Shown here: piece after piece, positions 9,470-48,640 of the stretch
How positions within the stretch are numbered: the first letter of the stretch is position 1
Layout of the letters: each line of letters begins with the position of its first letter
Assembly (NCBI GenBank): GCA_038749025.1
Contig: JBCDIL010000017.1
Location: 6,960 to 70,959, forward strand
Source of the DNA: Pseudomonadota bacterium
GTDB taxonomy: Bacteria > Pseudomonadota > Gammaproteobacteria > Steroidobacterales > Woeseiaceae
Length of the DNA stretch: 64,000 nucleotides
Direction of reading: 5' to 3'
Position numbers and translations under genes: made by a program
Notes under the pieces: model-generated
Seen by the model: the letters and a program-made list of their open reading frames with translations, nothing else
The model's database searches: none
Told to the model about the DNA's origin: nothing

Positions 9470-9973
9470 GTGAGTCAAGACCAAAAGTTTTTCGATATCT
9501 TCTCGCTCGTCTTGGGCATCCTCGTGGTTGTCGCGTTCGGCATCTACGCGCTGTCAGCGCGTATCGGTAACGCGACCCAAGGTCAGTACATCCAAGCCGA
9601 TGCGACTTACCAGGATCAGGTGAGCTCGGCGATTACGCCGGTCGGTCAGGTATTGATGCCTGGTGACGAAGCAAGTTTCGCCGCCCAAGTGGTGGCCAGT
9701 GCGGAACCGGTGAAAACCGTCTTGTCGGGCCCGCAGGTCTACAACGCGGCTTGTATCGCCTGCCACGGTGCCGGAATCGGCGGCGCACCCACTTACGGTA
9801 GTGCTGACGTGTGGGCGCCACGGATCGCGAAAGGTATCGACACGCTTTACGGCCACTCAATCAACGGGTTTTCGGGCGAAGCGGGTTACATGCCGCCGAA
9901 GGGTGGCCGGACCGACCTGTCCGACGACGAGATTCGGGCCGCGGTCGACTACATGATCGAAGGCTCGCAGTAA
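9470..9973 (+). CDS. membrane-anchored cytochrome c5-type c cytochrome
   Basis: N-terminal TM helix and heme motif CIACHGAG. Downstream MPPKGG and DDEIRAAVDYM blocks are present. GGGAG lies 10 nt upstream of GTG 9470. Confidence 0.8.
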   Translation: MSQDQKFFDIFSLVLGILVVVAFGIYALSARIGNATQGQYIQADATYQDQVSSAITPVGQVLMPGDEASFAAQVVASAEPVKTVLSGPQVYNAACIACHGAGIGGAPTYGSADVWAPRIAKGIDTLYGHSINGFSGEAGYMPPKGGRTDLSDDEIRAAVDYMIEGSQ

Positions 9974-9998: not shown

Positions 9999-10745
9999 AT
10001 GGCGACCTATTCGCCACCCACACCGGCGTTATCGGACACGGCGCTGTTCCTGGATATCGACGGAACGCTGCTGCCATTACAGTCGGATCCTGCTGGCGTT
10101 GCGAGTGACCCCGTACTTCGGCAAAAACTTACCGAACTCGTCACCCGAACAGACGGCGCGCTCGCACTCGTTAGCGGGCGCACGTTGGCTGATATAGATC
10201 GCATCTTCGCGCCACTCGCCTTTAGCGCCGCTGGTACCCACGGCGGCGAAATTCGCCATCGCGGTGCGGACCTGAGCCCGCCGGGGCTTAGCGCGTTAGA
10301 CGAAATGGCGCTGAAGCCGATTGCCGATTTTGTCGCCGCGAACCGCGGCTTGTTACTCGAGAACAAGGGCGTCAGTGTCACCTTGCATTTCCGTGAGCGC
10401 CCCGATCTCGAAGCCGATTGCCGCGCGATGATTGACGCGCTTTACGAACGCCATCCAGAGGGTATGCAGGTGATCGCCGGCAAGATGGTGTTCGAACTGA
10501 CCCCAATCGCCGCCAACAAAGGCGCCGCCATCCAACGCTTGCTGGGCGAGCCACCGTTTCGCGGACGCCAGCCCGTTTTCCTGGGTGACGACACGACCGA
10601 TGAGGCTGGCTTCACCGTCGTGAACGATGCCGGTGGCTTATCCGTGCTGGTCGGAGAGCGCGACACAACCGCGGCGACCCACCGGCTTGAAGGCGTCGCC
10701 GCTGTGCATGGCTGGCTTAGCAACTTGATCGCCAAGCGCGAGTAG
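9999..10745 (+). CDS. otsB: trehalose-6-phosphate phosphatase
   Basis: HAD motif FLDIDGTL, then SGR and GDDTTDE blocks. Clustered with otsA. Confidence 0.85.
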   Translation: MATYSPPTPALSDTALFLDIDGTLLPLQSDPAGVASDPVLRQKLTELVTRTDGALALVSGRTLADIDRIFAPLAFSAAGTHGGEIRHRGADLSPPGLSALDEMALKPIADFVAANRGLLLENKGVSVTLHFRERPDLEADCRAMIDALYERHPEGMQVIAGKMVFELTPIAANKGAAIQRLLGEPPFRGRQPVFLGDDTTDEAGFTVVNDAGGLSVLVGERDTTAATHRLEGVAAVHGWLSNLIAKRE

Positions 10746-10821
10746 CGCACATCATGCACCGGCCGGGTACACTGACGCTCGTGTTTGCTAACTGCCGGCC
10801 GTGTTCGGTGACGCATCGATA

Positions 10822-12609
10822 ATGAGCAGTCTCAACCTTGGTGTAATCGGAAACTGCCAGAGCGCAGCGCTCGTAGATGAGAAAGCCACCGTTGTCTGGT
10901 GTTGCTTGCCGCAGTTCGACAGTGACCCGATCTTTTGCCGGCTGCTGCGGGACGACGCGGAAACGACGCTCCCCGGCTTTTACGAGATCGAACTACTCGA
11001 CTTTGAGAAAAGCGAACAGCGATACATCCAAAACACCTGCATTCTACAAACCGACCTCACCGACAAACACGGCGCGAGCGTTCGAATTACCGACTTCATG
11101 CCGCGCTACATTCATCTCGAGCGCTCGTTTCGGCCCATGATGCTGATGCGCGGACTGGAGCCGATTAACGGACGGCCACGTGTTCGAATTCGTTTGCGCC
11201 CGGCGAGCAACTACGGTGCGGCTGCGTGCACGACGACGAACGGAAGCAACCATATCCGCTATGTGGGTGACCGTGTTGTTTTGAGACTGACCACCGACGT
11301 CGCGGTTACCCACGTTTTGGAAGAAGCGAGCTTCGTTCTAGATCGACCGCGCTACTTGGTATTGGGTCCAGACGAATCGATGCGCGAAGGCCCGGGCGAT
11401 GCATTTCACACGCACTATCGCGGTACACGCGATTATTGGCAGGCCTGGTCGCGCGGTCTGTCGATCCCATTTGAATGGCAGCAAGCCGTTATTCGCGCCG
11501 CGATCACGCTGAAGCTCTGCACCTTTGAGGACACCGGTGCCGTCATCGCTGCGATGACCACATCGGTACCGGAGGCGGCCGGAACCGAGCGTAATTGGGA
11601 CTACCGGTTTTGCTGGTTGCGCGACAGTTACTTCGTCGTGAAGGCGCTGAACCGACTGGGCGCGACACGGACGATGGAGGGCTACCTCAACTACTTGGCC
11701 AACATCGTCGCTGAAACCGACGCCGACGGCTTAAAGCCGCTGTACGGCATTAGCGGGCGCTCGCGGATTGAGGAGACCATCGTCGACAGCTTGTCCGGCT
11801 ACCGAGGCATGGGCCCGGTGCGGATTGGCAATCAAGCCTACGAGCAGATTCAACACGATGTCTACGGCGCGGTCGTGCTGTCGACAGCACACAGTTTCGT
11901 CGACAGCCGCTTACTGCGCGTCGACTTGGACGCCGAATTCACCCGACTTGAAGTGATCGGCGAGTGGGCGCGCGCGAACTACGAACAGCCGGATGCGGGT
12001 TTGTGGGAGTACCGCGGCCGCCAACGTGTCCATACCTTCTCGAGTTTGATGTGTTGGGCCGCTTGCGACCGCCTCGCAAGAATTGCCGCGCATCTCGGCC
12101 GCGAAAAACGTGCCGCCTATTGGGCGGAATCGGCCGAGACCATTCGCGCCGTGATTCACGAGAAAGCCTGGGACGACGAACAACAAGCATTCACTGAAAG
12201 CTTCGGTCGACCGGAGATGGACGCGAGCTTGTTGACGATGCACGACCTCGGCTTTATCGAGGCCACTGACCCGCGCTTTATCGGCACGGTTGAGTGCATT
12301 GAAAAACACCTGCGCCGCGGCAAGCACATGTTCCGCTACAACGCGGCCGACGATTTTGGCGTGCCGGAAAACGCGTTCAATATTTGCACGTTCTGGTTTA
12401 TCGACGCGTTAGCCGCGATCGGTCGGCGCGATGAGGCGCGTGAGCTGTTCGAAAACATGCTAGCGTCGCGGAACCATTTGGGGCTCCTGTCGGAAGACAT
12501 CGACCCACGCAATGGTGACCTGTGGGGCAACTTCCCGCAGACCTACAGCATGGCCGGCATCATTACCGCTGCGGTACGATTAAGCCGGTCTTGGGAAGAC
12601 GCGATCTGA
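10822..12609 (+). CDS. glycoside hydrolase family 15 protein (glucoamylase/trehalase-like)
   Basis: N-terminus MSSLNLGVIGNC, and blocks NWDYRFCWLRDS and LWEYRG are typical of bacterial GH15. ATG 10822 is preferred over GTG 10801. Confidence 0.85.
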   Translation: MSSLNLGVIGNCQSAALVDEKATVVWCCLPQFDSDPIFCRLLRDDAETTLPGFYEIELLDFEKSEQRYIQNTCILQTDLTDKHGASVRITDFMPRYIHLERSFRPMMLMRGLEPINGRPRVRIRLRPASNYGAAACTTTNGSNHIRYVGDRVVLRLTTDVAVTHVLEEASFVLDRPRYLVLGPDESMREGPGDAFHTHYRGTRDYWQAWSRGLSIPFEWQQAVIRAAITLKLCTFEDTGAVIAAMTTSVPEAAGTERNWDYRFCWLRDSYFVVKALNRLGATRTMEGYLNYLANIVAETDADGLKPLYGISGRSRIEETIVDSLSGYRGMGPVRIGNQAYEQIQHDVYGAVVLSTAHSFVDSRLLRVDLDAEFTRLEVIGEWARANYEQPDAGLWEYRGRQRVHTFSSLMCWAACDRLARIAAHLGREKRAAYWAESAETIRAVIHEKAWDDEQQAFTESFGRPEMDASLLTMHDLGFIEATDPRFIGTVECIEKHLRRGKHMFRYNAADDFGVPENAFNICTFWFIDALAAIGRRDEARELFENMLASRNHLGLLSEDIDPRNGDLWGNFPQTYSMAGIITAAVRLSRSWEDAI

Positions 12610-12623
12610 CGGAGCGAGCACCG

Positions 12624-14015
12624 ATGGCTCAGCAAGGACGTCTCATCGCCGTGTCGAACCGCGTTGCCATGCCCCGCAAGGGGCAGGCGGCAGCCGGGGG
12701 TCTCGCGGTCGGCATACAAGCAGCGCTAGCAGATCAAGGTGGTATTTGGTTTGGCTGGAACGGGAAGCTTGTTCGCACCGAAGCGAGCGACGCAACGACC
12801 ACGTCGCAAGACGGCGTTGACTACGCGACGATCTCGCTGAACGAGCGCGATTTCGAGCAGTACTACAACGGCTACAGCAACCGCGTGTTGTGGCCGATCT
12901 GCCATTACCTCAACAACTTCATACTCTATGAAGCCGATGACTTCGAAGGCTACCTGCGCGTAAACAGCGTGTTTGCTCGCAAGCTCGCGCCGCTCATCAA
13001 ACCCGACGACATGATTTGGGTGCACGACTACCACTTGATTCCGCTGGCAGCTGAACTTCGCGCTGCGGGTCTTAAGAACCCGATCGGATTTTTCTTACAC
13101 GTTCCGTTCCCGAGCTACGAGGCGTTTCGCGCGATTCCCGGCCACGACTATTTGTTGCGGGCCTTGTGCGCCTATGACGTCGTTGGCTTCCAAACCGCAC
13201 GCGACTTAGCGGCCTTCCGTACGTGCATGCGCCAGCCAGAAATCGGCGGCGAGGTTATCTCGGATACACAGATTCGTGTCGCCGGTGGCACCATGACGGT
13301 GGATGCGTTTCCGATCGGCATCGACGTCGATGGCCTGCAAGCCGCCGCCGAACAAGCCGTCGATACCGAAGCGGTGCGGCGCATGTACCGAAGCTTGAGC
13401 GGGCGCGATCTTGTCATTGGCGTGGATCGGCTCGACTACTCCAAAGCGCTGACACAACGGTTTTTGTCGTACGAGCGTTTGCTGCAGAAGTACCCAAACA
13501 CGCAGAGCAGCCTCGTCTATATGCAGGTCGCACCGCCGACCCGCACCGGTGTACGCGCCTACGACGAGATTCGCACCGAACTCGAACAGCAAGCCGGCCG
13601 CATCAATGGCCGCTTCGCTGAGGCCGATTGGGTGCCGATTCGTTACTTAAACAAGGGTATCGAGCGTAATCAGCTGATGGGCTTTTTACGCGTTGCGATC
13701 TCTGCGCTCGTCACACCTGTCCGCGACGGGATGAACCTCGTCGCGAAAGAATTTGTCGCGGCGCAAGACCCCGCCGACCCCGGCATTCCGGTCGTCTCGT
13801 CGCTGGCCGGCGCGTCCCGGGAGCTGACCGACGCAGTTGTCGTCAACCCGTACGACAAAGACAACGTGGCCGACGGTATCGCTAGCGTCATCACGATGGA
13901 TGTCGGTGAGCGCCGCGAACGCTATCAGTCGATGATCGAGGTTCTGCGCAAGAATGACATCACCGCGTGGCGGCAGCGCTTCGTTGATGCATTGATTAAC
14001 TGTCGGCGGGATTAG
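12624..14015 (+). CDS. otsA: alpha,alpha-trehalose-phosphate synthase
   Basis: GT20 blocks LIAVSNRV, WVHDYHL, GVDRLDYSKA and DGMNLVAKEF. ATG 12624 is preceded by GGAG; the track ORF start at 12522 overlaps the GH15 gene. Confidence 0.9.
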   Translation: MAQQGRLIAVSNRVAMPRKGQAAAGGLAVGIQAALADQGGIWFGWNGKLVRTEASDATTTSQDGVDYATISLNERDFEQYYNGYSNRVLWPICHYLNNFILYEADDFEGYLRVNSVFARKLAPLIKPDDMIWVHDYHLIPLAAELRAAGLKNPIGFFLHVPFPSYEAFRAIPGHDYLLRALCAYDVVGFQTARDLAAFRTCMRQPEIGGEVISDTQIRVAGGTMTVDAFPIGIDVDGLQAAAEQAVDTEAVRRMYRSLSGRDLVIGVDRLDYSKALTQRFLSYERLLQKYPNTQSSLVYMQVAPPTRTGVRAYDEIRTELEQQAGRINGRFAEADWVPIRYLNKGIERNQLMGFLRVAISALVTPVRDGMNLVAKEFVAAQDPADPGIPVVSSLAGASRELTDAVVVNPYDKDNVADGIASVITMDVGERRERYQSMIEVLRKNDITAWRQRFVDALINCRRD

Positions 14016-14517
14016 TTGCCGCTAGCGTCCGTGCCTGTTTCGCCCACAGAGCGATCTGCTCATGATGAGGCGACCAAGCCTGCCACGTCGATTCCGCCCA
14101 GCGTTTGACCGCCGCGTGGTGCTCCGTCGCGGTGTCTGCTTTTAGTACGTCAACGACTGTCAGACCACCGAAGCTAGCCGGCGGCTCCAACCACGTGAAG
14201 CTCATTGCATCGGCGCAGCGTTGCATCAGACTCATCGCAGCATTTGTCGATAGACCTTGTTCAAGCACGCTGTGCAGCGAAATCAGGTGTACAGCAACGG
14301 ACTGAATCGACTGCGGCGACGGCTTGCCGGGATGCTGCACGGCGTAGGCATCAACGGTGAGTCGATGGACGCTCATGTACGTCGCATCGCTGTACTCGCG
14401 CGTAAGAACCTCGCCGAAAGCCGCCCAGCAACTCGGCGTCGATTCCATGTACTTGTGCACCGGACCGTCGACTCGCGGTAGTACCACACCACAGCCGGGA
14501 CAGGTTTCGTTGGTCAT
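13996..14517 (-). CDS. hypothetical protein with N-terminal CPGCG zinc-ribbon-like motif (DUF5946-like)
   Basis: 173-codon ORF. Its 3' end overlaps the otsA 3' end by 20 nt (convergent). Confidence 0.55.
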   Translation of the reverse strand: MTNETCPGCGVVLPRVDGPVHKYMESTPSCWAAFGEVLTREYSDATYMSVHRLTVDAYAVQHPGKPSPQSIQSVAVHLISLHSVLEQGLSTNAAMSLMQRCADAMSFTWLEPPASFGGLTVVDVLKADTATEHHAAVKRWAESTWQAWSPHHEQIALWAKQARTLAATNPADS

Positions 14518-14579
14518 GAGGTTGTCAGCATAACGGCGCTACCAGCATCGGTGCTTTGGGTTTTAACGACACTGTCGGA

Positions 14580-14879
14580 CTAGTGGCTCTTGGCAGCTGA
14601 GATCGTAGTAAGCATGGCTTTGCATGCACAAATCTCATACATGATCCCAGGCGTCTCGCCCGATAAGTCTTCGGCCCGAACAACAACGTGGACGGTACCC
14701 AGGCTTGGGTCGATGCTCAACGCATCGCAGACTCCACGCTCAATAAAAGGGCGAAAGAGCTTAGTCCTCGCCCCAAGAACCTCGACGCAAAACTTGTCAG
14801 CCACATGGGCTTCGATACGAATGATCACATCGGAGCGAAAGTTAGTGACGCGAGTTAAGCGATATGAACCAGCAAACAT
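14580..14879 (-). CDS. hypothetical protein
   Basis: 99-codon ORF in the AT-richer islet. The minus-strand product looks more protein-like than the fully overlapping plus-strand ORF 14590..14883. No SD seen and no family recognised. Confidence 0.35.
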   Translation of the reverse strand: MFAGSYRLTRVTNFRSDVIIRIEAHVADKFCVEVLGARTKLFRPFIERGVCDALSIDPSLGTVHVVVRAEDLSGETPGIMYEICACKAMLTTISAAKSH

Positions 14880-15036
14880 GTGAGCCGAGCTCGTAAGAGT
14901 TAGCCGGGCGATTTACTGCACGCCCTGCCGTGTTGCGGCGTTCGCCATCGCGCTCCGTGAGCAAGCCGTCTGCGAACAGTGGCCAAATTCGGGCAACGCT
15001 TCGAACCCAACAATCCGCGCGTGTCTTGCAACGCAA

Positions 15037-16251
15037 TTACTGGTCGGTAGCGTACAACTGAATCAAGTGCACCATATCAGCATCCGCCAGTGCTTCGGCA
15101 GCCTCCAGCACCGTTTTCCCAGCGTAGACTTCATGCGGATTCGCGCCGTACTCTAGCAACAAGCGAACGAGCGCCACTCTTTCGGCTTTATCGGGGTTCG
15201 TCTCTAAGACCTGAATCAAATACGGCGGTGGGCACTCTGATTGATGACACCGGCGCACAACTGACGCGTTCGCTTGGAGTAGTAACGAGACGATGTGTTC
15301 ATTGCCAACCATGAGCGCGGATGATAGCGGAGTAACACCCTTAGCGTTTGCGGCATCCGGATCAGCACCGCGCTCGATGAAAAACTGCACAAGGGAAGAA
15401 TTTCCGCGCCCGCTAGCGACCATTAGCGGGGTGACATTGAACTCGTTCGTCACATTAACGGATAGTCCGTTATTTACGAGCCGCCTAACGAGCGCTTCGC
15501 TACCCCATTCAGTTGCGAGCAGTAGTCTGGCGACAGCAGACAAGCGAGGATCGTATAGGTTAGGGCTAAAATCAAAATCCGGTACGCGGACTCCATCGGG
15601 CAGCATACCGAGCGTTAGGGTGTCTGCGTCATCGTGACGATACGGTGGGACATGCAGGTTCCAGTCATTGCCGTGCTGGTGTCCAGCAACAATACGCCCC
15701 GCCAAATCGTAGGACTCCCCGCCGCAAGGGTTATAGAAACCACCAACCCCCTCCATAGGCACGACAGTGGATCGTTGCCGCTTGTCCGCCCTCGTAAGGA
15801 TGGCGCAACCGGTATACGGATCGGACGGAATAACGACGAAAACGTCGTCGCGCAACGACCGTAACCCGGAGTTTGGCAGGGCGCTGTGCATCGCGAGAAG
15901 CTCGTTGGCAAATGACCGGCCATAAGCCAATTGCGCGCCCTCCAGTGACTTTATCAAACCCGAGTCATTGGCCGCTGCGGGTAGCATTTCTCGAGGCTCA
16001 AGCAACCGCGAGATTTGTTGCGAAGTACGCCGACAAATCAGTATGGGCTTCTCATCCCACACCATGCGCTTACAGACGCCTTCTTTGAGGTCTGCGAAAT
16101 CAACTTTCAGGAATGTATCGCCGAGTGCTTCAGCGGTGATGGTCGCCAACAGCAAGGTGGCTAGGCACCGAAACCAGCTCGCTGGTGCAGCTCGTGTCTG
16201 AGATGACGACTCGATCATGTTGCGGTGCTTAAAGTCAGTACCAGGGATCAC
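15037..16251 (-). CDS. membrane-anchored Rieske-like (cluster ligands lost) domain fused to ankyrin repeats
   Basis: The N-terminal half aligns by eye with the bc1 Rieske subunit (VDFADLKEGVCKRMVWDEKPILICRRT; GGFYNPCGGESYDLAGRIVAG; NLHVPPY). The C-terminal half has ANK repeats (TPLMVASGRGNSSLVQFFIERGADPDAANAKGVTPL...). The start could be GTG 16251 or ATG 16218. Confidence 0.7.
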   Translation of the reverse strand: MIPGTDFKHRNMIESSSQTRAAPASWFRCLATLLLATITAEALGDTFLKVDFADLKEGVCKRMVWDEKPILICRRTSQQISRLLEPREMLPAAANDSGLIKSLEGAQLAYGRSFANELLAMHSALPNSGLRSLRDDVFVVIPSDPYTGCAILTRADKRQRSTVVPMEGVGGFYNPCGGESYDLAGRIVAGHQHGNDWNLHVPPYRHDDADTLTLGMLPDGVRVPDFDFSPNLYDPRLSAVARLLLATEWGSEALVRRLVNNGLSVNVTNEFNVTPLMVASGRGNSSLVQFFIERGADPDAANAKGVTPLSSALMVGNEHIVSLLLQANASVVRRCHQSECPPPYLIQVLETNPDKAERVALVRLLLEYGANPHEVYAGKTVLEAAEALADADMVHLIQLYATDQ

Positions 16252-16567
16252 AGCTTACGAATGCGGAGTCTTTAAGCACTTTTATATCAATTGTGTAGTC
16301 CGGATTGTCGGCTTGTAGTGCAGAAACAGCAGCGCGAAGCCTGTCGTACATTAAGTTGGGACAGACACTTATAGTCACCTCGCCGAGCTGTCGCGCCGCA
16401 ACAAACGCAACGAGGTCATCGGTGTTTTCTAACTCTTGACCCTCGGCCCAATAGCTATTGGTACCGATCTGGACCTGAGTGCCGAGTTCTTCATTGAGAA
16501 TCGGACGTTGCTGCCCGCAATAATCGGTGAAGAAACAGACTTGCAATGTGATTAACAACAAAGTCAC
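16235..16567 (-). CDS. hypothetical exported protein
   Basis: 110-codon ORF starting at GTG, with AGGTG 7 nt upstream. The N-terminus is hydrophobic. Low G+C. Confidence 0.45.
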   Translation of the reverse strand: MTLLLITLQVCFFTDYCGQQRPILNEELGTQVQIGTNSYWAEGQELENTDDLVAFVAARQLGEVTISVCPNLMYDRLRAAVSALQADNPDYTIDIKVLKDSAFVSCDPWY

Positions 16568-16584
16568 AGCGAAACACCTGACCC

Positions 16585-16840
16585 TTAATGAACTGCTTTG
16601 ATTGATCCGTTGAAGTGCTCATTGGGATGAACCGTCGATTCATGAAGGTGGATTACCTTGAACTGCACCTGATCACCCACGCTAGCAAGCATCCGACGGA
16701 TGCCGAACGACCGACACCGACAGCTCGGTGATTCGTGTAAGGCCTGGCACTCCTCGTACATCGACCCACAGCCCATAGTGCGCAACGGAGGTCACAATGC
16801 CGCTGTAAATTTCACCAAGCTTTACTGTACCGCCTGTCAA
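16585..16840 (-). pseudogene. S1 RNA-binding-domain gene interrupted by a 1-nt frame change
   Basis: Frame A (TTG 16840 to TAG 16682) encodes MTGGTVKLGEIYSGIVTSVAHYGLWVDVRGVPGLTRITELSVSVVRHPSDAC*. The domain continues in frame B (..SVGDQVQFKVIHLHESTVHPNEHFNGSIKAVH*, stop 16585). The track shows only the frame-B ORF 16585..16785. Confidence 0.55.
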
Positions 16841-16881
16841 TTAATTCCAGCTCGTCCTAGGCGCGAAAGCGCCAGACTTAG

Positions 16882-17259
16882 TCAAGCCACACAAATCCAC
16901 GCGCTCTGGTCCAACAACAGTGCACCGTCTTCTGGTCGGGTAAACAACCACCATTCGCCGGTGCAAGACTGCGCCGGTACGCCGTCGGATCGACACAACA
17001 CTAGCGCGCCATCTGGCGACACAAACCAGAACTCATCGGAGTAGCGGTCGGCCGGTATTTTGAAGTTAGGGTTCTGGTTGGCAAGCGATCTGAGTTCGTT
17101 GGCATTAACCGGAGCGTCCGGCAAGACAAGCCAATCTGCGCCATCTTTTGGTCCGCAATCGGCGCGAAAATCAGCGGATGGACCGGACACGACGCAGCCA
17201 GTGACTAGCGTAGCGAAAAATACGGCAACGCAAGTCCGTTGCAATAAACTCTGACTCAT
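16882..17259 (-). CDS. hypothetical lipoprotein
   Basis: Signal peptide with lipobox LVTGC. 125 codons. No family recognised. Confidence 0.55.
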   Translation of the reverse strand: MSQSLLQRTCVAVFFATLVTGCVVSGPSADFRADCGPKDGADWLVLPDAPVNANELRSLANQNPNFKIPADRYSDEFWFVSPDGALVLCRSDGVPAQSCTGEWWLFTRPEDGALLLDQSAWICVA

Positions 17260-17283
17260 CGGACGTAAGCCTTCGCGGAGCAG

Positions 17284-17988
17284 CTATTGAACCCGTTGCA
17301 GTATGGCGATGTAATCCTTACCGCGGTTGATACGTAAATCGTCGTCGAGGTAAGTCACGGTCGACGTCGATGGGGGTCGCGATGGATCTTGCGGCACGTT
17401 GATCGACAGCGGCGCATTGTCGGCGACGCCCAACGCAGAACGAACGTCGTTCGGTGTTACGTCTGCACGTGTGGGCACGAACGCGATGGTATGGAACGCG
17501 ACTTCAAGAACGTTCGGTGCTTGTTTGGCGACACCGAGATCGGCGGTAGCGATGTAGAGAAACGGTACGTCGGGATCGCCAGCGGTCATCGTCATCATGT
17601 TGCGGTAGAAACGCTTCTCGGGATCGAGCTCCTGCAACACCGTCAGGCTGGTCGCTTTGCGGCCGGGCTTGCCGCCACCCGGCAGTGCTCGGGTCATGAA
17701 CATCAAATCGATCTCGCCGACGACGCCTTGGCTGCTAAACCGGTTGATCCAAATACCTTTGGCCGCACCGGGATTGGCCGCTAAATCAGGAAGCGCCGCC
17801 GTCGCTTCGAGCGCTGCGGCTGCCGCATCGATAGCCCCTAAAACAGCCTCGGTTACTGGCGCACCCGGCTCGTACGCATCAAGTACATCGAGCAAGGAAG
17901 ACTTCGCGACAAGACGCTCGTCAGCCACCACCAGCGAGCTTAGACCACATCCGACGATCACCATCGTTACTAAGGCTTTTTTGAGCAC
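17284..17988 (-). CDS. PAP/fibrillin-like lipoprotein
   Basis: GTG 17988 has GGGAG 7 nt upstream and gives VLKKALVTMVIVGC (lipobox). The C-terminal block VTYLDDDLRINRGKDYIAILQRV resembles the fibrillin/PAP family end motif. Confidence 0.55.
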   Translation of the reverse strand: MLKKALVTMVIVGCGLSSLVVADERLVAKSSLLDVLDAYEPGAPVTEAVLGAIDAAAAALEATAALPDLAANPGAAKGIWINRFSSQGVVGEIDLMFMTRALPGGGKPGRKATSLTVLQELDPEKRFYRNMMTMTAGDPDVPFLYIATADLGVAKQAPNVLEVAFHTIAFVPTRADVTPNDVRSALGVADNAPLSINVPQDPSRPPSTSTVTYLDDDLRINRGKDYIAILQRVQ

Positions 17989-18098
17989 GCTGCAGCTCCC
18001 GCATTTTCGATTCCACGGCAAAGACAATAGCAGCCATTTATCGCCGACCGTAGTCCGATGGCCAGTGCGGGCTGGCGCGACTGTTGACCGAGACAGCG

Positions 18099-41859: not shown

Positions 41860-42195
41860 TCACGCCGGTGCGCTGGCCCCGCAGTTCCAGCAGAGGTGAA
41901 ACTGCGCTTCGTTGTCGCTGCCGCAATGCTCACATCGCCACGCGGGGCCGCTAGGCGTGCCGCCAGCAATGTAATCGGCGACGAGTTGTGTTGCCTTTGT
42001 AACGTCAGCCACGTTGATCAACCAAAGCTCTGGCCACGCCGAAATAGGCGGCAGCTCACCGGCGATTGAGCCAAGGTGCTCGTTACGCAGTTCCGTTTCT
42101 ATCCCTGCCGCTGCCAATACGTTTCTTACCAGTGCAACCTGAGTCAGCGTCTCTGCCGAGTAAACGCGCAGCGGTTGCTCTCGGTCGTTAAACAC
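41860..42195 (-). CDS. DUF2007-like protein with C-terminal zinc ribbon
   Basis: RVYSAETLTQVALVRNVLAAAGIETELRNE followed by CEHCGSDNEAQFHLCWNCG. GTG 42195 overlaps the trpA 3' end by 8 nt. The longer track ORF (to 42360) lies inside trpA. Confidence 0.55.
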   Translation of the reverse strand: MFNDREQPLRVYSAETLTQVALVRNVLAAAGIETELRNEHLGSIAGELPPISAWPELWLINVADVTKATQLVADYIAGGTPSGPAWRCEHCGSDNEAQFHLCWNCGASAPA

Positions 42196-42970
42196 GGGTG
42201 GCGCGTAAACCCGCGAGAAACGCACCGATATCGTCGCCGCGCTCCTGCGCCTCGATGAGCGCTGAACCAACGACGGCACCGTTGACGTGCTGTCCGACGG
42301 CCGCGACGTCGGTCGATGCGCGAATCCCAAAACCGGCGCATACCGGCTTCTCGCCCGCAACGCGCATCAGTCGGGCGAGGTAATCGGTGGTCTCAGCCGG
42401 TAGACCGTTGGCGCCACCGGTAATACCACGCACAGTCACGGCGTAAACGAAACCGTCGCTCGCGGCGACCAATTCATGTTGCCGCTGCTCCGGGGTTGCG
42501 GGAGTCACCAGTTGGATCAACGCGAGGCCTGCATCACGAAACGCCGCGTGCACTGGGGCCGATTCTTCCAGCGGCAGATCCGGGACGATGAACCCGGCGA
42601 CACCCGCTGCCGCGGCTACCTCGCCCAACGGCTCAAGCCCGTACGCTAGCAGCGGGTTCAGGTAGGACATCAACACGATCGGCGCCGTGACTCGGTCACC
42701 GAGTTCGCCGAGCGACGCCAATATCCACGTCAGGCTCGCACCGTTCGCGATCGCATGATGGCTCGAGCGCTGAATCGTCGGTCCGTCGGCCATCGGGTCG
42801 CTGAACGGCACACCGATCTCAACCACATCGGCACGCTCAGTGATGGTAAGCAACGTCTCTGCGAACGCCTCGCAGGACGGGTAGCCGGCCGTGAAGAACG
42901 GGACCAACGCCGTTTCACCCCGTTCGTTCGCCGCGTTGATCGCGGCGCTGATTCGTTCCGCCCCAGTCAC
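42188..42970 (-). CDS. trpA: tryptophan synthase alpha chain
   Basis: LVPFFTAGYP, EIGVPFSDPMADGPTIQ and GFGI blocks. Confidence 0.95.
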   Translation of the reverse strand: MTGAERISAAINAANERGETALVPFFTAGYPSCEAFAETLLTITERADVVEIGVPFSDPMADGPTIQRSSHHAIANGASLTWILASLGELGDRVTAPIVLMSYLNPLLAYGLEPLGEVAAAAGVAGFIVPDLPLEESAPVHAAFRDAGLALIQLVTPATPEQRQHELVAASDGFVYAVTVRGITGGANGLPAETTDYLARLMRVAGEKPVCAGFGIRASTDVAAVGQHVNGAVVGSALIEAQERGDDIGAFLAGLRATRV

Positions 42971-44211
42971 GCGATGTCTCCGATTGTCGTCGCCGGATAT
43001 TGGGTGAGTGTCGGCATGTCTTTGTCACCGCGACCCGAATTACCGATCAAAATTCGCGCGCCACGGTTGGCTTTAGCAAACTCGCCAGCCGCCGAGAAGG
43101 CGTGCGCCGTCTCGAGCGCTGTCAAGATACCCTCGGTCCGGCACAATTCCTCAAGTGCCGCCAAGGCTGGTCCGTCCTCGGCGGACACATAACGTACCCG
43201 GCCGCAGGCTTGTAAAAACGCATGTTCAGGCCCAACACCAGAATAGTCGAGTCCCGCCGATATCGAGTGGGTTTCCTGCACTTGGCCGTCACCGTCTTGC
43301 AGGATGATCGTGTAGCAACCCTGCAGAACGCCGGGGCGGCCGGTCGCAAGGGTGGCCGAGTTGTCGCCTAGGCCAGGGCCACGACCGCCGGCCTCCACAC
43401 CGACGATTTGAACATCCCGATCACCGAGGAACGGGTGAAACAGACCGATCGCGTTCGAACCGCCGCCGACACAGGCGAAGACCGCATCCGGCAAGCCGCC
43501 AACCGCCACCATTTGTTCCCGCGCCTCCTCGCCGATCACCCGTTGCAACTCGCGAACGAGGTAGGGGTATGGGCTTGGCCCGACCGCGGAGCCGAGTAAG
43601 TAATAGGTGCCCTCCGGGTCGGATACCCAGTCGCGAAGGGCCTCATCGATCGCCGCTCGTAAGGTGCGATCGCCGGTCTCAACCGCCATCACCTCAGCGC
43701 CGAGTCGGCGCATGCGGTCAACATTGGGTGATTGCCGAACTATATCCTCGGCACCCATATAGACGCGACACGGCAAACCGATCCGGGCACACGCGGCCGC
43801 CGATGCAACACCGTGTTGGCCCGCGCCAGTCTCGGCGATAACACGCTTAGCGCCGAGGCGCTTCGCGAGCAGCGCCTGGCCCACGGCGTTGTTGATCTTG
43901 TGGGCGCCCGTGTGCGCCAAATCTTCACGTTTTAGAAAGACCTCGGCACCCCATCGCTCACTGAGACGCGCCGCATAACTAAGGGCCGTCGGTCGGCCAA
44001 CCCAATCCTTCAGCTCTGCGCGGTACGCGGCCTGAAAGCTAGGATCCGGTAAATAGGTCCGCACCCCATGATCGAGACGCTCGAGCGCCGGTACGAGTGT
44101 CTCGGGAACGTAGCGACCCCCAAACGGGCCAAACCGGCCGCGCGCATCGGGTAGCTCGCCCGCAAGCAACTGAGCGAATGCCGTGTCGTAGTTTACGTCG
44201 TCGGCCAACAC
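42967..44211 (-). CDS. trpB: tryptophan synthase beta chain
   Basis: GRFGPFGGRYVPE, LKREDLAHTGAHKINN and GGGSNAIG blocks. GTG 44211 has GGAGG 9 nt upstream and lies 6 nt after the trpF stop. The track ORF N-terminal extension overlaps trpF. Confidence 0.95.
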   Translation of the reverse strand: MLADDVNYDTAFAQLLAGELPDARGRFGPFGGRYVPETLVPALERLDHGVRTYLPDPSFQAAYRAELKDWVGRPTALSYAARLSERWGAEVFLKREDLAHTGAHKINNAVGQALLAKRLGAKRVIAETGAGQHGVASAAACARIGLPCRVYMGAEDIVRQSPNVDRMRRLGAEVMAVETGDRTLRAAIDEALRDWVSDPEGTYYLLGSAVGPSPYPYLVRELQRVIGEEAREQMVAVGGLPDAVFACVGGGSNAIGLFHPFLGDRDVQIVGVEAGGRGPGLGDNSATLATGRPGVLQGCYTIILQDGDGQVQETHSISAGLDYSGVGPEHAFLQACGRVRYVSAEDGPALAALEELCRTEGILTALETAHAFSAAGEFAKANRGARILIGNSGRGDKDMPTLTQYPATTIGDIA

Positions 44212-44216
44212 CAGAC

Positions 44217-44813
44217 CTATCCTCCAAATTCGCGGCGCGCTGCCGCTACAAAAGCATGAATGCGTTGCGGGTCTTTGACACCCGGCAGAGCTTCGACACC
44301 ACTGGATACATCGACCCCCGCTGGCTGCACCGCATCGATGGCGGCCGCCACATTGTCCGGATCGAGGCCACCCGCGAGTACCACGGCCGTATCGGCGGCG
44401 AGCTTGCTGGCGGCGTGCCAATCGGCTCTCCCACCGCTGCCACTAGCGTCGCTCTCGTAGAGCAGCGCGGCCGGTAATTCAGCCGCATCGGGCGGGGCAG
44501 AATCACGGTAGACCGGCAATCGGCGAACAGCCACCGGTACATCCATTGCGGCAAAATCAAGGGCATCGGTCTGCACGATATCCGGTTCGAAACCGTCGAT
44601 AACCGCGCGCGCGGCGGCGGCGGTTGGATGGCGCATCACCGCGACGATGTCGACACTACCGCGGGCTGGCTTCGCTAGCGCCTTAGCTTGGGCAACGCCG
44701 ACTTCTCTGACCGAGGGCGCGAACACGAAACCGATCGCATCAGCACCCGCCGCCAACGCCGCCGCCACATCGGCTGGTCCGGTCATGCCGCAGATCTTGA
44801 CCCACCGTTTCAC
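44217..44813 (-). CDS. trpF: phosphoribosylanthranilate isomerase
   Basis: VKICGMT, ADAIGFVF and LAGGL blocks. Confidence 0.9.
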   Translation of the reverse strand: MKRWVKICGMTGPADVAAALAAGADAIGFVFAPSVREVGVAQAKALAKPARGSVDIVAVMRHPTAAAARAVIDGFEPDIVQTDALDFAAMDVPVAVRRLPVYRDSAPPDAAELPAALLYESDASGSGGRADWHAASKLAADTAVVLAGGLDPDNVAAAIDAVQPAGVDVSSGVEALPGVKDPQRIHAFVAAARREFGG

Positions 44814-45610
44814 GGGCCAGTCTCAAGAGCGGCGCTGCGCAGCGCCTGCAGCAGCTGGGTCGGGTCTGCGGCGCGCATTAAGGCGGTACCGATCAAGGCT
44901 CCCTGGTAGCCGGCGGCTTTCGCATCGATGGCGTCGTCTGGCGTTTTAATGCCGCTTTCAGCGATGGTGACCACATCGGTCGGCAGTAACGCCGCGAGCG
45001 TGTTTAGACGAGTCGGGTCGACCGCCAACGTTCGTAAGTCGCGACTGTTGACCCCGTAAAGCACTTGGCGGTTGCTAATCGCCGCCTCAATTGTAGGCAC
45101 GTTCCGAAGCGTGATAAGCCGCGCGATGTCGTCAGCATCGAAGGCCTCAAGCAACACAAACAACGAACGCTCGATCGCGCCGAGCGTTAACGCGCGCAAA
45201 GTCTCGTCATCGAGCATAGCAGCGATCAGCAAAACGCCGCTGGCACGGGCTGAGCACGCTTCGTCCAGCTGGCGAGCGTCGGTCAAAAAGTCCTTGCGCA
45301 TAACCGGCGTCGTCGGCAGCGCGGTCGCGATCGCCTCAAGGTCAGCTAGCGAGCCGCCAAAGCGGCTTGGCTCCGTCAATACGGAGATAGCTGCCGCGCC
45401 ACCGTCGACGTAGCGTTGCGCGCGTACCGCGATATCGTCACGGCTGCCGAGCTCGCCCTCAGCCGGCGACACGCGCTTGATCTCGGCGATCACAGCGAAT
45501 GGGTCGTCGGGAAACGCGATCGGCGTGTGGGCCGGCGCCTTGACACGCTCCGGTAACTCGGCCGCGCGCGCTCGACTTGCCTGCGCCATGTTTACAAGAA
45601 AATCGCTCAT
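44810..45610 (-). CDS. trpC: indole-3-glycerol phosphate synthase
   Basis: VIAEIKRVSPAEG, ISVLTEP, MRKDF and VNSRDL blocks. Confidence 0.9.
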   Translation of the reverse strand: MSDFLVNMAQASRARAAELPERVKAPAHTPIAFPDDPFAVIAEIKRVSPAEGELGSRDDIAVRAQRYVDGGAAAISVLTEPSRFGGSLADLEAIATALPTTPVMRKDFLTDARQLDEACSARASGVLLIAAMLDDETLRALTLGAIERSLFVLLEAFDADDIARLITLRNVPTIEAAISNRQVLYGVNSRDLRTLAVDPTRLNTLAALLPTDVVTIAESGIKTPDDAIDAKAAGYQGALIGTALMRAADPTQLLQALRSAALETGP

Positions 45611-46638
45611 TCGCGATTCGCGTCGAAGTCGGCCAATTTCGCTAACAGCCGCGCCGCATCGCCGTTATCGATAGCGCTAGCCGCTCGCGTCACGCCCTCG
45701 CGTGGCGAATCAACCAGGCCTGCCACTTCCAGCGCCAAGGATGTCGCCATTAACAAGGCATCGCGATGCGGGCCGTAATCCTCACCGTTCAAGACACGCT
45801 GCAGCGCGGCCGCGTTCTGGGCGGCATCACCACCGGCCAGGTGCTCGGCGGAGCAGCGGCCAAGGCCGTAGTCTTCGGGCGTTCTTTCGCTTTCGCGAAC
45901 CTCACCGTCGGCAACGTCGAGTAACAGGAAACTGCCGACCGGCGTCGCCTCATCCCAACCGGGTTCCCCGTGAATAACGAACGAGCGCTTCGCCGGCAAG
46001 CCGGCGAGCGTGGCAGCCAGTAATCGCGCCACGTCGGCCGAAAAAGCACCGATGACGTTGTACGGAGGCGTCGCCGGATTGGTCAGCGGACCGAGTAGAT
46101 TGAAGACCGTCCGTACACCCATGGCTGCGCGGATCGGAGCGATGGCTTTCATGGCCGGATGAAACGCCGGCGCGAAAAAGAACGTAAAGCCAGTCTCAGT
46201 CAGACAACGAGCGGCGTCGGCCGGCGGTAGTGGCAACGTGAGCCCCAGTGCTTCTAGTACATCGGCGCTGCCCGACTGGCTGGATACCGATCGGTTACCG
46301 TGTTTTGCCACCGGTAAGCCCGCCGCCGCGGTTAGTAGGGCCGCACCGGTCGACAGATTGTACGTGCCAGAGCCGTCGCCGCCGGTACCTACGATATCGA
46401 TACAATCAAGCCCGTCGGGCAACTCGGGCACGCGAGCCAAGGCGCGCATCGCTTGGGCAAAGCCGCGAATCTCGTCGGCCGTTTCGCCCTTGCTGCGAAG
46501 TGCCGCCAGCAGAGCGCCTGCTCGCGGTGCCGGCAGCGATTCGTCGGTGAGACTGTGCATCAGCTCACGGGCCGCCGTTTCCGATAGCGACTGCCCATTC
46601 AGCAGCGCCTCTAGCCAATCGCGGGTCGGCTCGCTCAT
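45607..46638 (-). CDS. trpD: anthranilate phosphoribosyltransferase
   Basis: DIVGTGGDGSGTYNLST, PVAKHGNR and FNLLGPLTNP blocks. Confidence 0.95.
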   Translation of the reverse strand: MSEPTRDWLEALLNGQSLSETAARELMHSLTDESLPAPRAGALLAALRSKGETADEIRGFAQAMRALARVPELPDGLDCIDIVGTGGDGSGTYNLSTGAALLTAAAGLPVAKHGNRSVSSQSGSADVLEALGLTLPLPPADAARCLTETGFTFFFAPAFHPAMKAIAPIRAAMGVRTVFNLLGPLTNPATPPYNVIGAFSADVARLLAATLAGLPAKRSFVIHGEPGWDEATPVGSFLLLDVADGEVRESERTPEDYGLGRCSAEHLAGGDAAQNAAALQRVLNGEDYGPHRDALLMATSLALEVAGLVDSPREGVTRAASAIDNGDAARLLAKLADFDANRE

Positions 46639-47243
46639 CGCATCGCTCCAGTGAGGAAGTTGCCCATCAATGTATCGCCTTCCGGGGTCAGGACGCTCTC
46701 CGGATGAAACTGCACACCGGCAAGCGGCAGATCTCGATGCCGTACCGCCATTAACTCACCAGCATCGGTCGTCGCCGTACTGATGAGCTCGGTTGGCAAG
46801 GCATCCGCCTCTGCACACAGACTGTGGTAGCGACCCACTTGCATCGGATTTTGAATGCCTGCGAACAGCTGTTGCTCATCGTGTGACGCGAGCGATGTCT
46901 TGCCGTGCATCAAGCGCGGCGCCTGCACGATCTCACCACCAAAGTGTTGCACGATACATTGGTGACCAAGGCATACGCCAAGCAGAGGAATTTTGTCAGC
47001 AAACGCGCCGATCATGGCCAGCGATACACCAGCGTCTTCGGGGCGTCCGGGGCCAGGTGAAACGACAAGATGGGTCGGGCCCAGCTCGTGAGCGGTCTCA
47101 GTATCGATCTCGTCGTTTCGATACACCCACACTTCGGCACCGAGCGCGGCAAACGCCTGGACAAGGTTAAACGTGAACGAATCGTAGTTATCGATCATCA
47201 ATAAACGCGGCGCACCGGTCGCGGCGGCAAAGTGCTGCATCAC
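46635..47243 (-). CDS. trpG: anthranilate synthase component II (glutamine amidotransferase)
   Basis: MIDNYDSFTFNLVQ, GVCLGHQ and VQFHPES blocks. Confidence 0.9.
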   Translation of the reverse strand: MMQHFAAATGAPRLLMIDNYDSFTFNLVQAFAALGAEVWVYRNDEIDTETAHELGPTHLVVSPGPGRPEDAGVSLAMIGAFADKIPLLGVCLGHQCIVQHFGGEIVQAPRLMHGKTSLASHDEQQLFAGIQNPMQVGRYHSLCAEADALPTELISTATTDAGELMAVRHRDLPLAGVQFHPESVLTPEGDTLMGNFLTGAMR

Positions 47244-48640
47244 AATCCCTCCGCGGCAATCGCTAAGGCCGAGCGCAAAATCGCACTCTTGTGTAAGACC
47301 TCGTGATACTCAGCCGTCGGGTCGCTGTCAGCGACGATGCCGGCGCCCGCCTGAAAACTGTATTGGTCACCGTCGAAGACCAGTGTCCGTATGGTTATCG
47401 CTTGATCCATGTCCCCGCTCTTGCCGAAATAGCCCACGGTCCCGGCGTACAACTCACGGTTGACGGGTTCGAGTTCGTCGATGATCTGCATGGCCCGCAC
47501 CTTCGGCGCTCCGACCAAGGTACCGGCGGGAAACGCTGCTGCAAATAGATCAAACGCGTCAGCGTTGTCGGCCAGTGTTCCAGTAACACCAGAGACAATA
47601 TGCATAACGTGACTGTAGCGCTCTATGGTCATGTACGGATCAACGGCGACAGTACCCACTTCAGCTACCCGGCCAAGATCATTGCGGGCTAAATCGACCA
47701 ACATCACGTGCTCGGCACATTCTTTCGGGTCAGCGAGCAACTCTTGCTCCAGCCGTCGGTCGGCATCGACGGATTCGCCGCGTGGGCGGGTACCGGCGAT
47801 CGGTCGCAATGACGCTTGGCGATCACCACAGCGGACGAGCGCCTCCGGTGACGATCCAGCCACCTGCAGACCGCCGATATCGAGATAGAACATGTACGGC
47901 GACGGGTTCAGCAGGCGTAGCGCCCGATACACATCGAACGGTGGCGGTCGGCCAGTGCCGGCAAACCGCACGGATAAGACAATCTGGTAGATGTCGCCCG
48001 CGCGAATGTACTGCTGACAACGCCGCACCAAGTCCTCAAACGTTTGTTGATCAAGGCTCGCCGTGGGTGGTGACGGCTTCGCGGCGCTCGCCATGACGGG
48101 CAGCGGACCACGCAGTAACTCGATAACGCGTTGTTTCAATCGACGGCGCTCCTCGTCACTGCCGGCATGCAACAACGCCATACGGCGGGTAAGGTGGTCG
48201 AAGACCAACACCGACTCGCAGCCGGCGTAGGCTGCGATGACACCATGCTCGGAAGGACGTTCCGTCGCTAGGCGCTCGAAGAAGCGGACAATGTCGTAAG
48301 CGGCATACCCGACCAGCCCCCCATCGAACGGTAAGTCGTCGATGGCCGGTGACAACGCGGGGGTCGCAGCCAGCGCCTCGCGCAGCAATGCTTTGAGACC
48401 TTCGGCATCGCTCGGCAACGCTCGTGTCGCGTTATCGATGCGTACACCATTGCGGCTGACGATGACTTCGGTAGCGGTTCCGAAACCCAGAAACGAGTAG
48501 CGTGCCAAACGCGTGCCGCCCTCGACGCTTTCCAGGAGGTAACGCGGCTGCAGCGACTGCAGCTTTAGATACGCCGAAACCGGCGTATCGAGATCGGCAG
48601 CGATATCGAAGTAGCCGGGCAGTTGCTCGCGGTCAGTCAT
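47240..48640 (-). CDS. trpE: anthranilate synthase component I
   Basis: LLESVEGG, NPSPYMFYL and GAGIVADSDP blocks. Confidence 0.95.
   Translation of the reverse strand: MTDREQLPGYFDIAADLDTPVSAYLKLQSLQPRYLLESVEGGTRLARYSFLGFGTATEVIVSRNGVRIDNATRALPSDAEGLKALLREALAATPALSPAIDDLPFDGGLVGYAAYDIVRFFERLATERPSEHGVIAAYAGCESVLVFDHLTRRMALLHAGSDEERRRLKQRVIELLRGPLPVMASAAKPSPPTASLDQQTFEDLVRRCQQYIRAGDIYQIVLSVRFAGTGRPPPFDVYRALRLLNPSPYMFYLDIGGLQVAGSSPEALVRCGDRQASLRPIAGTRPRGESVDADRRLEQELLADPKECAEHVMLVDLARNDLGRVAEVGTVAVDPYMTIERYSHVMHIVSGVTGTLADNADAFDLFAAAFPAGTLVGAPKVRAMQIIDELEPVNRELYAGTVGYFGKSGDMDQAITIRTLVFDGDQYSFQAGAGIVADSDPTAEYHEVLHKSAILRSALAIAAEGL

Follow-up and report, generated by a model that had tools for sequence, protein, structure and literature searches.

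A ligand-less Rieske-like domain of bc1 origin joined to ankyrin repeats in a family of predicted periplasmic proteins from Gammaproteobacteria

The Rieske head of PetA, the iron-sulfur subunit of the cytochrome bc1 complex, inserts its cluster-bearing tip into cytochrome b, on which the docking target is highly conserved. A Rieske-like domain without a cluster is known from green algae and plants, where TEF5/PSB33 (LIL8) is non-catalytic and acts in the assembly of photosystem II (PSII) through protein–protein contacts (PMC12164590). As for ankyrin repeats, AnkB of Pseudomonas aeruginosa and Cj1386 of Campylobacter jejuni are exported ankyrin proteins that support catalase, according to PMC7567364 (citing Howell et al. 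2000 and Flint & Stintzi 2015); linkage of the ank and kat genes is given there as typical of the AnkB group (PMC7567364). The gene analysed here lies in a stretch of 64,000 nucleotides (referred to below as the window, in whose coordinates all positions are given) from a Pseudomonadota bacterium of the Woeseiaceae (assembly GCA_038749025.1, contig JBCDIL010000017.1, positions 6,960 to 70,959 of the forward strand). Its product joins an N-terminal domain related to the PetA head, but lacking the residues that bind the [2Fe-2S] cluster, to a C-terminal ankyrin domain.

The gene is an intact open reading frame (ORF) on the minus strand (15037..16251, 404 codons when read from a GTG); its features are collected in Table 1, and residue numbers are counted from the Met at 16218 (393 amino acids) unless GTG numbering is stated. 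The N-terminal half matched the NCBIfam model TIGR01416 (Rieske_proteo, the proteobacterial ubiquinol-cytochrome c reductase iron-sulfur subunit) with an E-value of 1.4e-12 and 48 bits, a score that does not reach the family cut-off of 97.4 bits; residues 39-215 of the 404-amino acid ORF (GTG numbering) aligned with profile positions 35-176 of 176. When residues 1-236 of the ORF read from the GTG were compared by phmmer with the Protein Data Bank (PDB), every significant match was a bc1 Rieske chain (top match 8smr_C, 1.3e-9), and a profile made from 30 N-terminal domains of the family described below retrieved 8smr_C with an E-value of 7.6e-29 and 7yr9_A with one of 4.8e-28. Aligning the family with 20 canonical PetA proteins by hhalign gave a probability of 100% and an E-value of 1.6e-43 over 146 aligned columns, with a consensus identity of 32%. 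The core columns that are still conserved in the family and common to PetA comprise PG, W..PV.V.RRT, RS, G-C, F.DPC, YD..GR and NL.IPP. Among the profiles that the initial annotation had proposed for checking the domain assignment, the Rieske models PF00355 and PF10399 gave no match to the ORF product even at E ≤ 10 (Pfam shows ankyrin families only), while the ankyrin families scored above their cut-offs. The descent of the N-terminal domain from the proteobacterial bc1 Rieske subunit, as that annotation had proposed, is nevertheless strongly supported by the TIGR01416, PDB profile and hhalign scores.

The residues that would hold a cluster have been replaced. In the remnant of box I the ligand Cys has become Asp and the ligand His Tyr, and in that of box II the ligand Cys has become Asn and the ligand His Gly; both boxes retain their second Cys (Cys138 and Cys165), the pair by which the disulfide of the Rieske domain is formed in bc1 proteins, a correspondence that the initial annotation had not remarked on. 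Neither a C-x-H-x-G-C nor a C-x-C-H motif was found anywhere in the protein. The same columns were compared in an alignment of 138 domain sequences (39 canonical proteins, 46 long cluster-less members of the query's own family and 53 short cluster-less relatives; see below). All 39 canonical proteins had the C/H/C/H ligands and both disulfide Cys. Among the 46 long members, the column of the first ligand Cys contained Ser, Asp, Glu or Asn in 40 and that of the second Asp or Asn in 42, and the columns of the two ligand His were highly variable, with 17 residue types at the first (Tyr being the commonest) and more than 10 at the second; the disulfide Cys pair was retained in all 46. The Pro loop (G-P-A-P), whose columns read P, A and P in 36, 37 and 27 of the 39 canonical proteins, respectively, is G-N-D in the query and variable in the long family, where it has a two-residue insertion, and the Ser that hydrogen-bonds the cluster has also been lost from that family. 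The claim that both ligand boxes had been destroyed was therefore right as regards the ligands, all four of which are replaced, although the reading first given for box I was shifted by one position (the alignments give DPYTGC, not PYTGCA). Since both Cys and both His ligands are replaced in all alignments, the prediction that this domain is unable to bind a Rieske cluster is strongly supported.

The initial annotation had seen the N-terminus as a membrane anchor without an obvious twin-arginine motif. The second part of that description was confirmed; the first does not agree well with the features of the segment. This segment (WFRCLATLLLATITAEA) has an uncharged core of 12 residues preceded by a basic n-region and followed by A-E-A and then L, with no twin arginine. 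The median length of the uncharged stretch was 14 residues in the 46 long members, compared with 22 in the 39 canonical PetA proteins and 20 in the 53 short relatives, and an arginine pair lay ahead of it in three, 29 and 20 proteins of these groups, respectively. Sites of the A-x-A type occur in many family members (e.g. ANA, AFA, VSA and ARA). In the AlphaFold2 (AF2) model the hydrophobic segment is rendered as a single helix (residues 13-31). Taken together, a cleaved signal peptide of the Sec type and a soluble periplasmic protein would fit these features better than a membrane anchor, a conclusion with good support.

The distribution of cysteines bears on the compartment independently of the N-terminal statistics. 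In an alignment of the query with 48 long members (A1, 49 sequences), Cys 49/62 were both present in 14 sequences and both absent from 35; Cys 138/165 were both present in 48 and both absent from one; and for neither pair was a single Cys seen. Cys 324/329 were both present in 22 sequences and both absent from 24, with a single Cys in three. The number of cysteines in the mature part was even in 42 of the 49, and the query carries all three pairs. Because the three pairs co-vary and the counts are mostly even, they point to an oxidising, periplasmic compartment.

The C-terminal half was recognised by five Pfam families, which include PF12796 and PF00023, all of them above their cut-offs (bits, with the cut-off in second place: Ank_2 56.8/27.3, Ank 56.5/21.1, Ank_4 57/22.7, Ank_3 42.5/22.3 and Ank_5 42/27). 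A structure predicted by AlphaFold from the single sequence was unusable (predicted local distance difference test, pLDDT, 36), but the AF2 model built on the 49-sequence family alignment reached a mean pLDDT of 91.3 and a predicted template modelling score (pTM) of 0.85. In this model, five helix pairs lie within residues 228-392 with a pLDDT mostly above 95, and Foldseek matched them to five-repeat DARPins with target TM-scores of 0.84-0.92 over 161-170 aligned columns. The ankyrin repeats noticed in the initial annotation are thus borne out, but their number is five rather than three or four. The Cys324-x4-Cys329 loop sits between repeats 3 and 4. The pLDDT of the Rieske-homologous domain was mostly above 90, falling to 65-67 at about residues 141-160, and the region of the insertion of about 21 residues was modelled as two helices (88-99 and 101-113) with a pLDDT of 89-98. 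The high pTM and the conserved linker between the two halves suggest that in the modelled protein the Rieske-like and ankyrin domains are held in a fixed orientation.

Three start sites can be considered for the gene (window 16126-16251). With the GTG at 16251 (404 codons) the reading frame overlaps the last 17 nt of an upstream ORF of 110 codons, while the ATG at 16218 lies 16 nt past the stop of that ORF. The start chosen by the annotation pipeline PGAP is a TTG at codon 35, yielding 370 amino acids and removing the predicted signal peptide. The ATG at 16218 is most likely the true start, as judged from the sequence: it is preferred since the N-terminus then resembles that of the relatives, and the TTG is disfavoured since its use would delete a hydrophobic segment present in every relative. 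A protein in NCBI from a Pseudomonadota metagenome-assembled genome (MAG; P0001, 370 amino acids) matches the ORF product at 100% identity; it is annotated only as 'ankyrin repeat domain-containing protein'. That the gene might be a pseudogene or a chance ORF was ruled out by its intact frame and by the invariant residues and co-varying Cys pairs seen across sequences that are 20-45% identical.

The protein is not alone. An exhaustive HMMER search of 1.84 billion representative sequences returned 240 proteins at E ≤ 1e-3, of which the best 150 comprised 41 canonical Rieske proteins, 49 motif-less proteins extended at the C-terminus by 60 residues or more and 60 motif-less, short proteins (some of them fragments, most of a type of about 185-200 amino acids with an N-terminal anchor). 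At least 46 clusters (50% identity) show the Rieske-like plus ankyrin architecture in gammaproteobacterial MAGs. Among the 49 sequences of alignment A1, 35 gave an ankyrin match at E ≤ 1e-3 and none a Pfam Rieske match. MAGs of Woeseiaceae, Gammaproteobacteria, Rheinheimera sp. and Pseudomonadota make up the named sources of the long family, and the nearest relative, P0121 of a Woeseiaceae MAG, shows 45% identity in the N-terminal domain. A rough neighbour-joining (NJ) tree, based on distances and carrying no support values, orders its leaves in three blocks: the canonical proteins, those that are short, anchored and cluster-less, and the long ones with fused ankyrin repeats. The existence of the long proteins as a conserved and widespread family that is under selection is strongly supported by these sequence comparisons.

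Several circumstances attend the detection of this family. Word-indexed homologue searches with the N-terminal domain alone or with the family alignment gave no matches, and such a search with the whole protein was dominated by generic ankyrin proteins, so that the family surfaced only through the exhaustive HMMER search. A scan of genome contigs with four close sequences yielded two loci, and one of metagenome contigs three short contigs without context. The IMG database labels several members 'Rieske Fe-S protein', which is wrong as to function, and NCBI labels them 'ankyrin repeat domain-containing protein', which is incomplete. For the Rieske–ankyrin family there was no match to a Pfam Rieske model and none above cut-off to an NCBIfam model, and literature searches on Rieske plus ankyrin, on ligand-lacking 'Rieske-like' and on 'cluster-less' Rieske proteins found no description of the architecture or of either cluster-less family. 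The remark in the initial annotation that the architecture was not a recognised one thus agrees with both the profile and the literature searches.

The short PetA-like proteins (about 180-200 amino acids) form a second family, to which P0139, P0141, P0169, P0176, P0177 and others belong; P0177 is WP_052063966.1 of Acidihalobacter prosperus. A hydrophobic anchor of about 20 residues lies at the N-terminus, in many cases behind an arginine-rich stretch (e.g. RRRLYLRLTVKLL in P0177). The proteins carry substitutions at each of the four cluster ligands and retain the disulfide Cys pair. At the two loci L008 (6001-6561) and L009 (6001-6555) these are orphan genes with no petBC adjoining.

The Rieske–ankyrin gene lies in a run of minus-strand ORFs within a stretch of slightly lower G+C content (window 14000-18030, 0.55-0.57 against about 0.60). 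This stretch is flanked on one side by otsB, a GH15 gene, otsA and the DUF5946 gene, and on the other by a ComM/YifB-like gene and glnK-amtB. One of its ORFs encodes a PAP_fibrillin-like protein, a family known mainly from plastids. Since a trp operon is present, the window can be regarded as ordinary chromosomal DNA; an RND efflux system is also encoded elsewhere in it. A Rieske cluster motif was not found elsewhere in the window, nor was cytochrome b or c1 (petB/petC) among its annotated genes. Nine loci were examined for context (the window plus L001, L004, L006, L007, L014, L015, L016 and L017), and near the family gene at these nine no petB/petC, catalase or other recurrent partner was found, the neighbours differing at every one. 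Comparison of five neighbouring ORFs with ten loci by tblastn revealed no recurrence, and a scan for promoters and terminators around the gene gave counts at chance level. Two individual arrangements may be recorded. In L006 (8001-10457), a Pyr_redox_2/Reductase_C gene (ferredoxin reductase-like) begins 10 nt after the family gene (P0130), a pairing that was not seen at the other loci and may be a coincidence. In L014 (1043-3074), the family gene (P0143) starts 14 nt downstream of a gene for 388 amino acids without a Pfam match, with which it may be co-transcribed.

Table 1. Features of the Rieske–ankyrin gene and of neighbouring genes in the window
Feature	Position in window	Strand	Description or basis
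Preferred coding sequence	15037..16218	minus	ATG 16218, 393 codons, stop at 15037-15039
Predicted Sec-type signal peptide	16126..16218	minus	MIESSSQTRAAPASWFRCLATLLLATITAEA, predicted cleavage before LG; basic n-region, 12-residue uncharged core, A-E-A site
Cluster-less Rieske (PetA head-domain) homologue	15604..16119	minus	Residues 34-205; profile, PDB and hhalign matches
Predicted helical insertion	15895..15957	minus	~21 residues (GLIKSLEGAQLAYGRSFANEL); gap in hhalign alignment, absent from canonical PetA
Box I remnant	15805..15822	minus	D133-P-Y135-T-G-C138 vs C-T-H-L-G-C; phmmer, profile and hhalign alignments agree
Box II remnant	15721..15732	minus	N163-P-C165-G166 vs C-P-C-H; phmmer, profile and hhalign alignments agree
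Conserved linker	15544..15603	minus	…PDGVRVPDFDFSPNLYDPR…; family motif D-F-x-P; family alignment consensus; pLDDT 97-98
Ankyrin domain, five helix-pair repeats	15040..15543	minus	Pfam, AF2, Foldseek
Small mono-haem c-type cytochrome	9470-9973		Precedes trehalose cluster
Trehalose cluster	9999-14015	plus	Trehalose-phosphatase, GH15/trehalase-like hydrolase, GT20 trehalose-6-phosphate synthase
173-aa DUF5946 protein	13996-14517	minus	N-terminal CxxC-like motif; Pfam only, E 1.1e-42; just downstream of trehalose genes
99-aa ORF	14580-14879	minus	No Pfam/NCBIfam match
110-aa ORF	16235-16567	minus	No Pfam/NCBIfam match
125-aa ORF	16882-17259	minus	Lipoprotein-like N-terminus; no Pfam/NCBIfam match
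247-aa PAP_fibrillin-like protein	17284-18027	minus	Signal-peptide-like N-terminus; Pfam only, E 3.5e-9
trp operon	42188-48640	minus	Anthranilate synthase I and II, trpD, trpC, 198-aa ORF (likely trpF), trpB, trpA

On balance, the product is probably a soluble, Sec-exported, disulfide-stabilised periplasmic protein that carries no redox cofactor and serves, outside redox chemistry, in binding or as an adaptor, made up of a bc1 Rieske-derived domain and ankyrin repeats. An origin of its N-terminal domain from a duplicated proteobacterial bc1 Rieske subunit is strongly supported. The domain has retained the fold-determining core (W..PV.I.RRT, RS, G-C, P-C, YD..GR and NL.IPP) and the Cys pair of the intradomain disulfide; gone are the Pro loop, the Ser in contact with the cluster and each of the four [2Fe-2S] ligands, and a helical insertion of about 21 residues has been gained. 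A short predicted Sec signal peptide stands in the place of the twin-arginine signal-anchor of PetA, as would suit a protein for which folding around a cofactor in the cytoplasm is no longer needed. Because the twin-arginine translocation (Tat) route exports proteins already folded around a cofactor in the cytoplasm, it is coherent that the cofactor and the Tat motif should both be lost. The domain is fused through the conserved linker to five ankyrin repeats, in an orientation predicted to be fixed. The ankyrin groove would be the main recognition surface, and the pseudo-Rieske domain would supply rigid support or a further face for binding. A non-catalytic role in periplasmic protein binding, which is put forward with reserve, is the most economical reading, because there is no conserved catalytic or complete ligand constellation, the conserved residues are structural and half of the protein is a protein-binding module. 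The partner could be a respiratory or other periplasmic redox protein, of which the evidence obtained gives no indication.

Some observations weigh against this interpretation. Foldseek searches with the full model returned ankyrin and DARPin matches only, so that the Rieske fold of the N-terminal domain rests on sequence homology. The signal-peptide call is based on statistics of length, charge and motif. The neighbourhoods differ from locus to locus, and the context therefore neither supports nor specifies a function. Moreover, the former Cys-ligand positions are fairly well conserved as polar residues (Ser/Asp and Asp/Asn), and a different metal or ligand site could form there. Such a rebuilt pocket, with Asp, Tyr and Asn around another metal or small ligand, would turn the domain into a sensor or carrier. 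The idea draws on the polar or acidic character of those two columns (Ser/Asp/Glu/Asn in 40 of the 46 and Asp/Asn in 42), but each of the columns that once held a His now accommodates more than 10 residue types, and such variability leaves no complete coordination sphere conserved; in addition, the confidence of the AF2 model is lowest (65-67) in the loop that separates the remnants of the two boxes, at about residues 141-160. It is accordingly held to be a rather improbable outcome. A tether to the inner membrane by an uncleaved signal-anchor, as in PetA and as the initial annotation had it, is also improbable, though slightly less so. In its favour, the position of the segment matches that of the PetA anchor, AF2 models a single helix there and the sister family of short cluster-less proteins retains an anchor of about 20 residues; yet an uncharged core of 12 residues (family median 14) is too short for a typical transmembrane span, sites of the A-x-A type follow the core in the query and in many members, and the twin arginine is absent from 43 of the 46.

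Other alternatives concern the partner rather than the protein itself. It would be natural to imagine that the domain still docks where the PetA head does, as a decoy or assembly factor on cytochrome b/c1 that regulates, protects or chaperones bc1 complexes lacking their iron-sulfur protein, the ankyrin repeats recruiting another factor. The closest relatives of the domain are indeed bc1 PetA heads and no other Rieske class, the compartment would be common to the PetA head, and TEF5/PSB33 is a case of a cluster-less Rieske-like domain serving PSII assembly. This proposal is nonetheless unlikely: conservation within the family domain is lowest in the loops of the docking tip (box I, box II and the Pro loop), neither the window nor any of the eight other loci has petB/petC close to the gene, and the protein has lost the transmembrane helix by which PetA is held in its complex. 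The initial annotation had suggested that the protein could dock on or mimic partners in respiratory complexes, and this suggestion is somewhat weakened by the variable tip loops and by the lack of petB/petC at the nine loci. A broader form of the proposal, in which both cluster-less families make up a class of respiratory-chain accessory proteins whose dead Rieske heads occupy or guard the docking sites on cytochrome b/c1, is a shade more doubtful; such heads might act during assembly, repair or redox stress, for example, with the ankyrin domain recruiting a second partner, and this would amount, if true, to an undescribed regulatory or assembly layer on bacterial bc1 complexes. Help of the AnkB/Cj1386 kind, that is, haem delivery to, or stabilisation of, a periplasmic haemoprotein (catalase, peroxidase or a c-type cytochrome), has little probability. 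An export signal and ankyrin repeats are common to both, and the AnkB/Cj1386-type proteins are, to our knowledge, the only characterised exported bacterial ankyrin proteins, but no catalase or peroxidase gene adjoins the family gene at any locus, though ank-kat linkage is typical of that group, and the Rieske-derived domain would be left unexplained. It is very improbable, finally, that the protein is a secreted effector whose Rieske-like domain mimics the mitochondrial Rieske protein of a eukaryotic host. Ankyrin repeats are common among the effectors of intracellular bacteria, and NCBIfam models of Legionella Dot/Icm ankyrin effectors match the C-terminal half with E-values down to 5e-13; these matches, however, score at most 48 bits against cut-offs of 500-1400 bits, which means generic ankyrin similarity. 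Instead of a type IV secretion system (T4SS) architecture the protein has a predicted Sec signal peptide; where hosts are named, they belong to environmental lineages (Woeseiaceae, Rheinheimera and gammaproteobacterial MAGs); and the window is ordinary chromosomal housekeeping DNA.

With the periplasmic binding or adaptor protein as the preferred interpretation, the family offers a clean case of a cofactor-bearing respiratory subunit that would have been turned into a cofactor-free binding protein. Three changes would be mechanistically coherent in it: the ligands and the Pro loop are lost, the structural disulfide is kept, and a predicted Sec signal peptide replaces the Tat signal-anchor. Two uncharacterised families are defined, one ankyrin-fused and the other short and membrane-anchored. 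Should the partner be bc1 or another periplasmic redox enzyme, the ankyrin-fused proteins would represent accessory factors of a new type; should it not be a redox enzyme, they would still add to the very short lists of exported bacterial ankyrins and of 'dead' Rieske domains. Both component folds are well known, and plants provide examples of dead Rieske domains; for the combination no published description was found. The evidence yields no surprising mechanism so far, but the family is testable and its evolutionary logic is clean.

Comparison with the known systems places the protein among them as follows. TEF5/PSB33 likewise has a Rieske-like domain without the residues for an iron-sulfur cluster, and may be likened to the Rieske–ankyrin family by the shared fold class; it is a chloroplast protein confined to the green lineage, with a transit peptide, C-terminal transmembrane helices, a stromal domain and no ankyrins. 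The likeness to AnkB and Cj1386 is one of architecture, these being, like the query, exported bacterial proteins with a handful of ankyrin repeats. As far as the comparisons went, neither TEF5/PSB33 nor the AnkB group represents a homologous system. They consist of ankyrin repeats only and have a catalase-linked gene, whereas the query has a Rieske-derived domain and no catalase neighbour at the nine loci. The short cluster-less PetA-like proteins (e.g. WP_052063966.1) are, like the query, PetA-derived, have the four ligands replaced and the disulfide pair in place, and are encoded by orphan genes, but they have an anchor of about 20 residues (with an arginine pair in 20 of 53), end after the Rieske-like domain and form a separate block in the NJ tree. 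From PetA itself (TIGR01416; PDB 8smr chain C) the query differs in having neither the Cys/His ligands nor the Pro loop nor the cluster-contacting Ser, in its helical insertion of about 21 residues, in its predicted Sec signal peptide instead of a twin-arginine signal-anchor, in its C-terminal ankyrin domain and in its location outside a petABC operon. What the two have in common is homology over the whole of the soluble head, the core motifs, the disulfide Cys pair and, as predicted for the query, the periplasmic side of the membrane.

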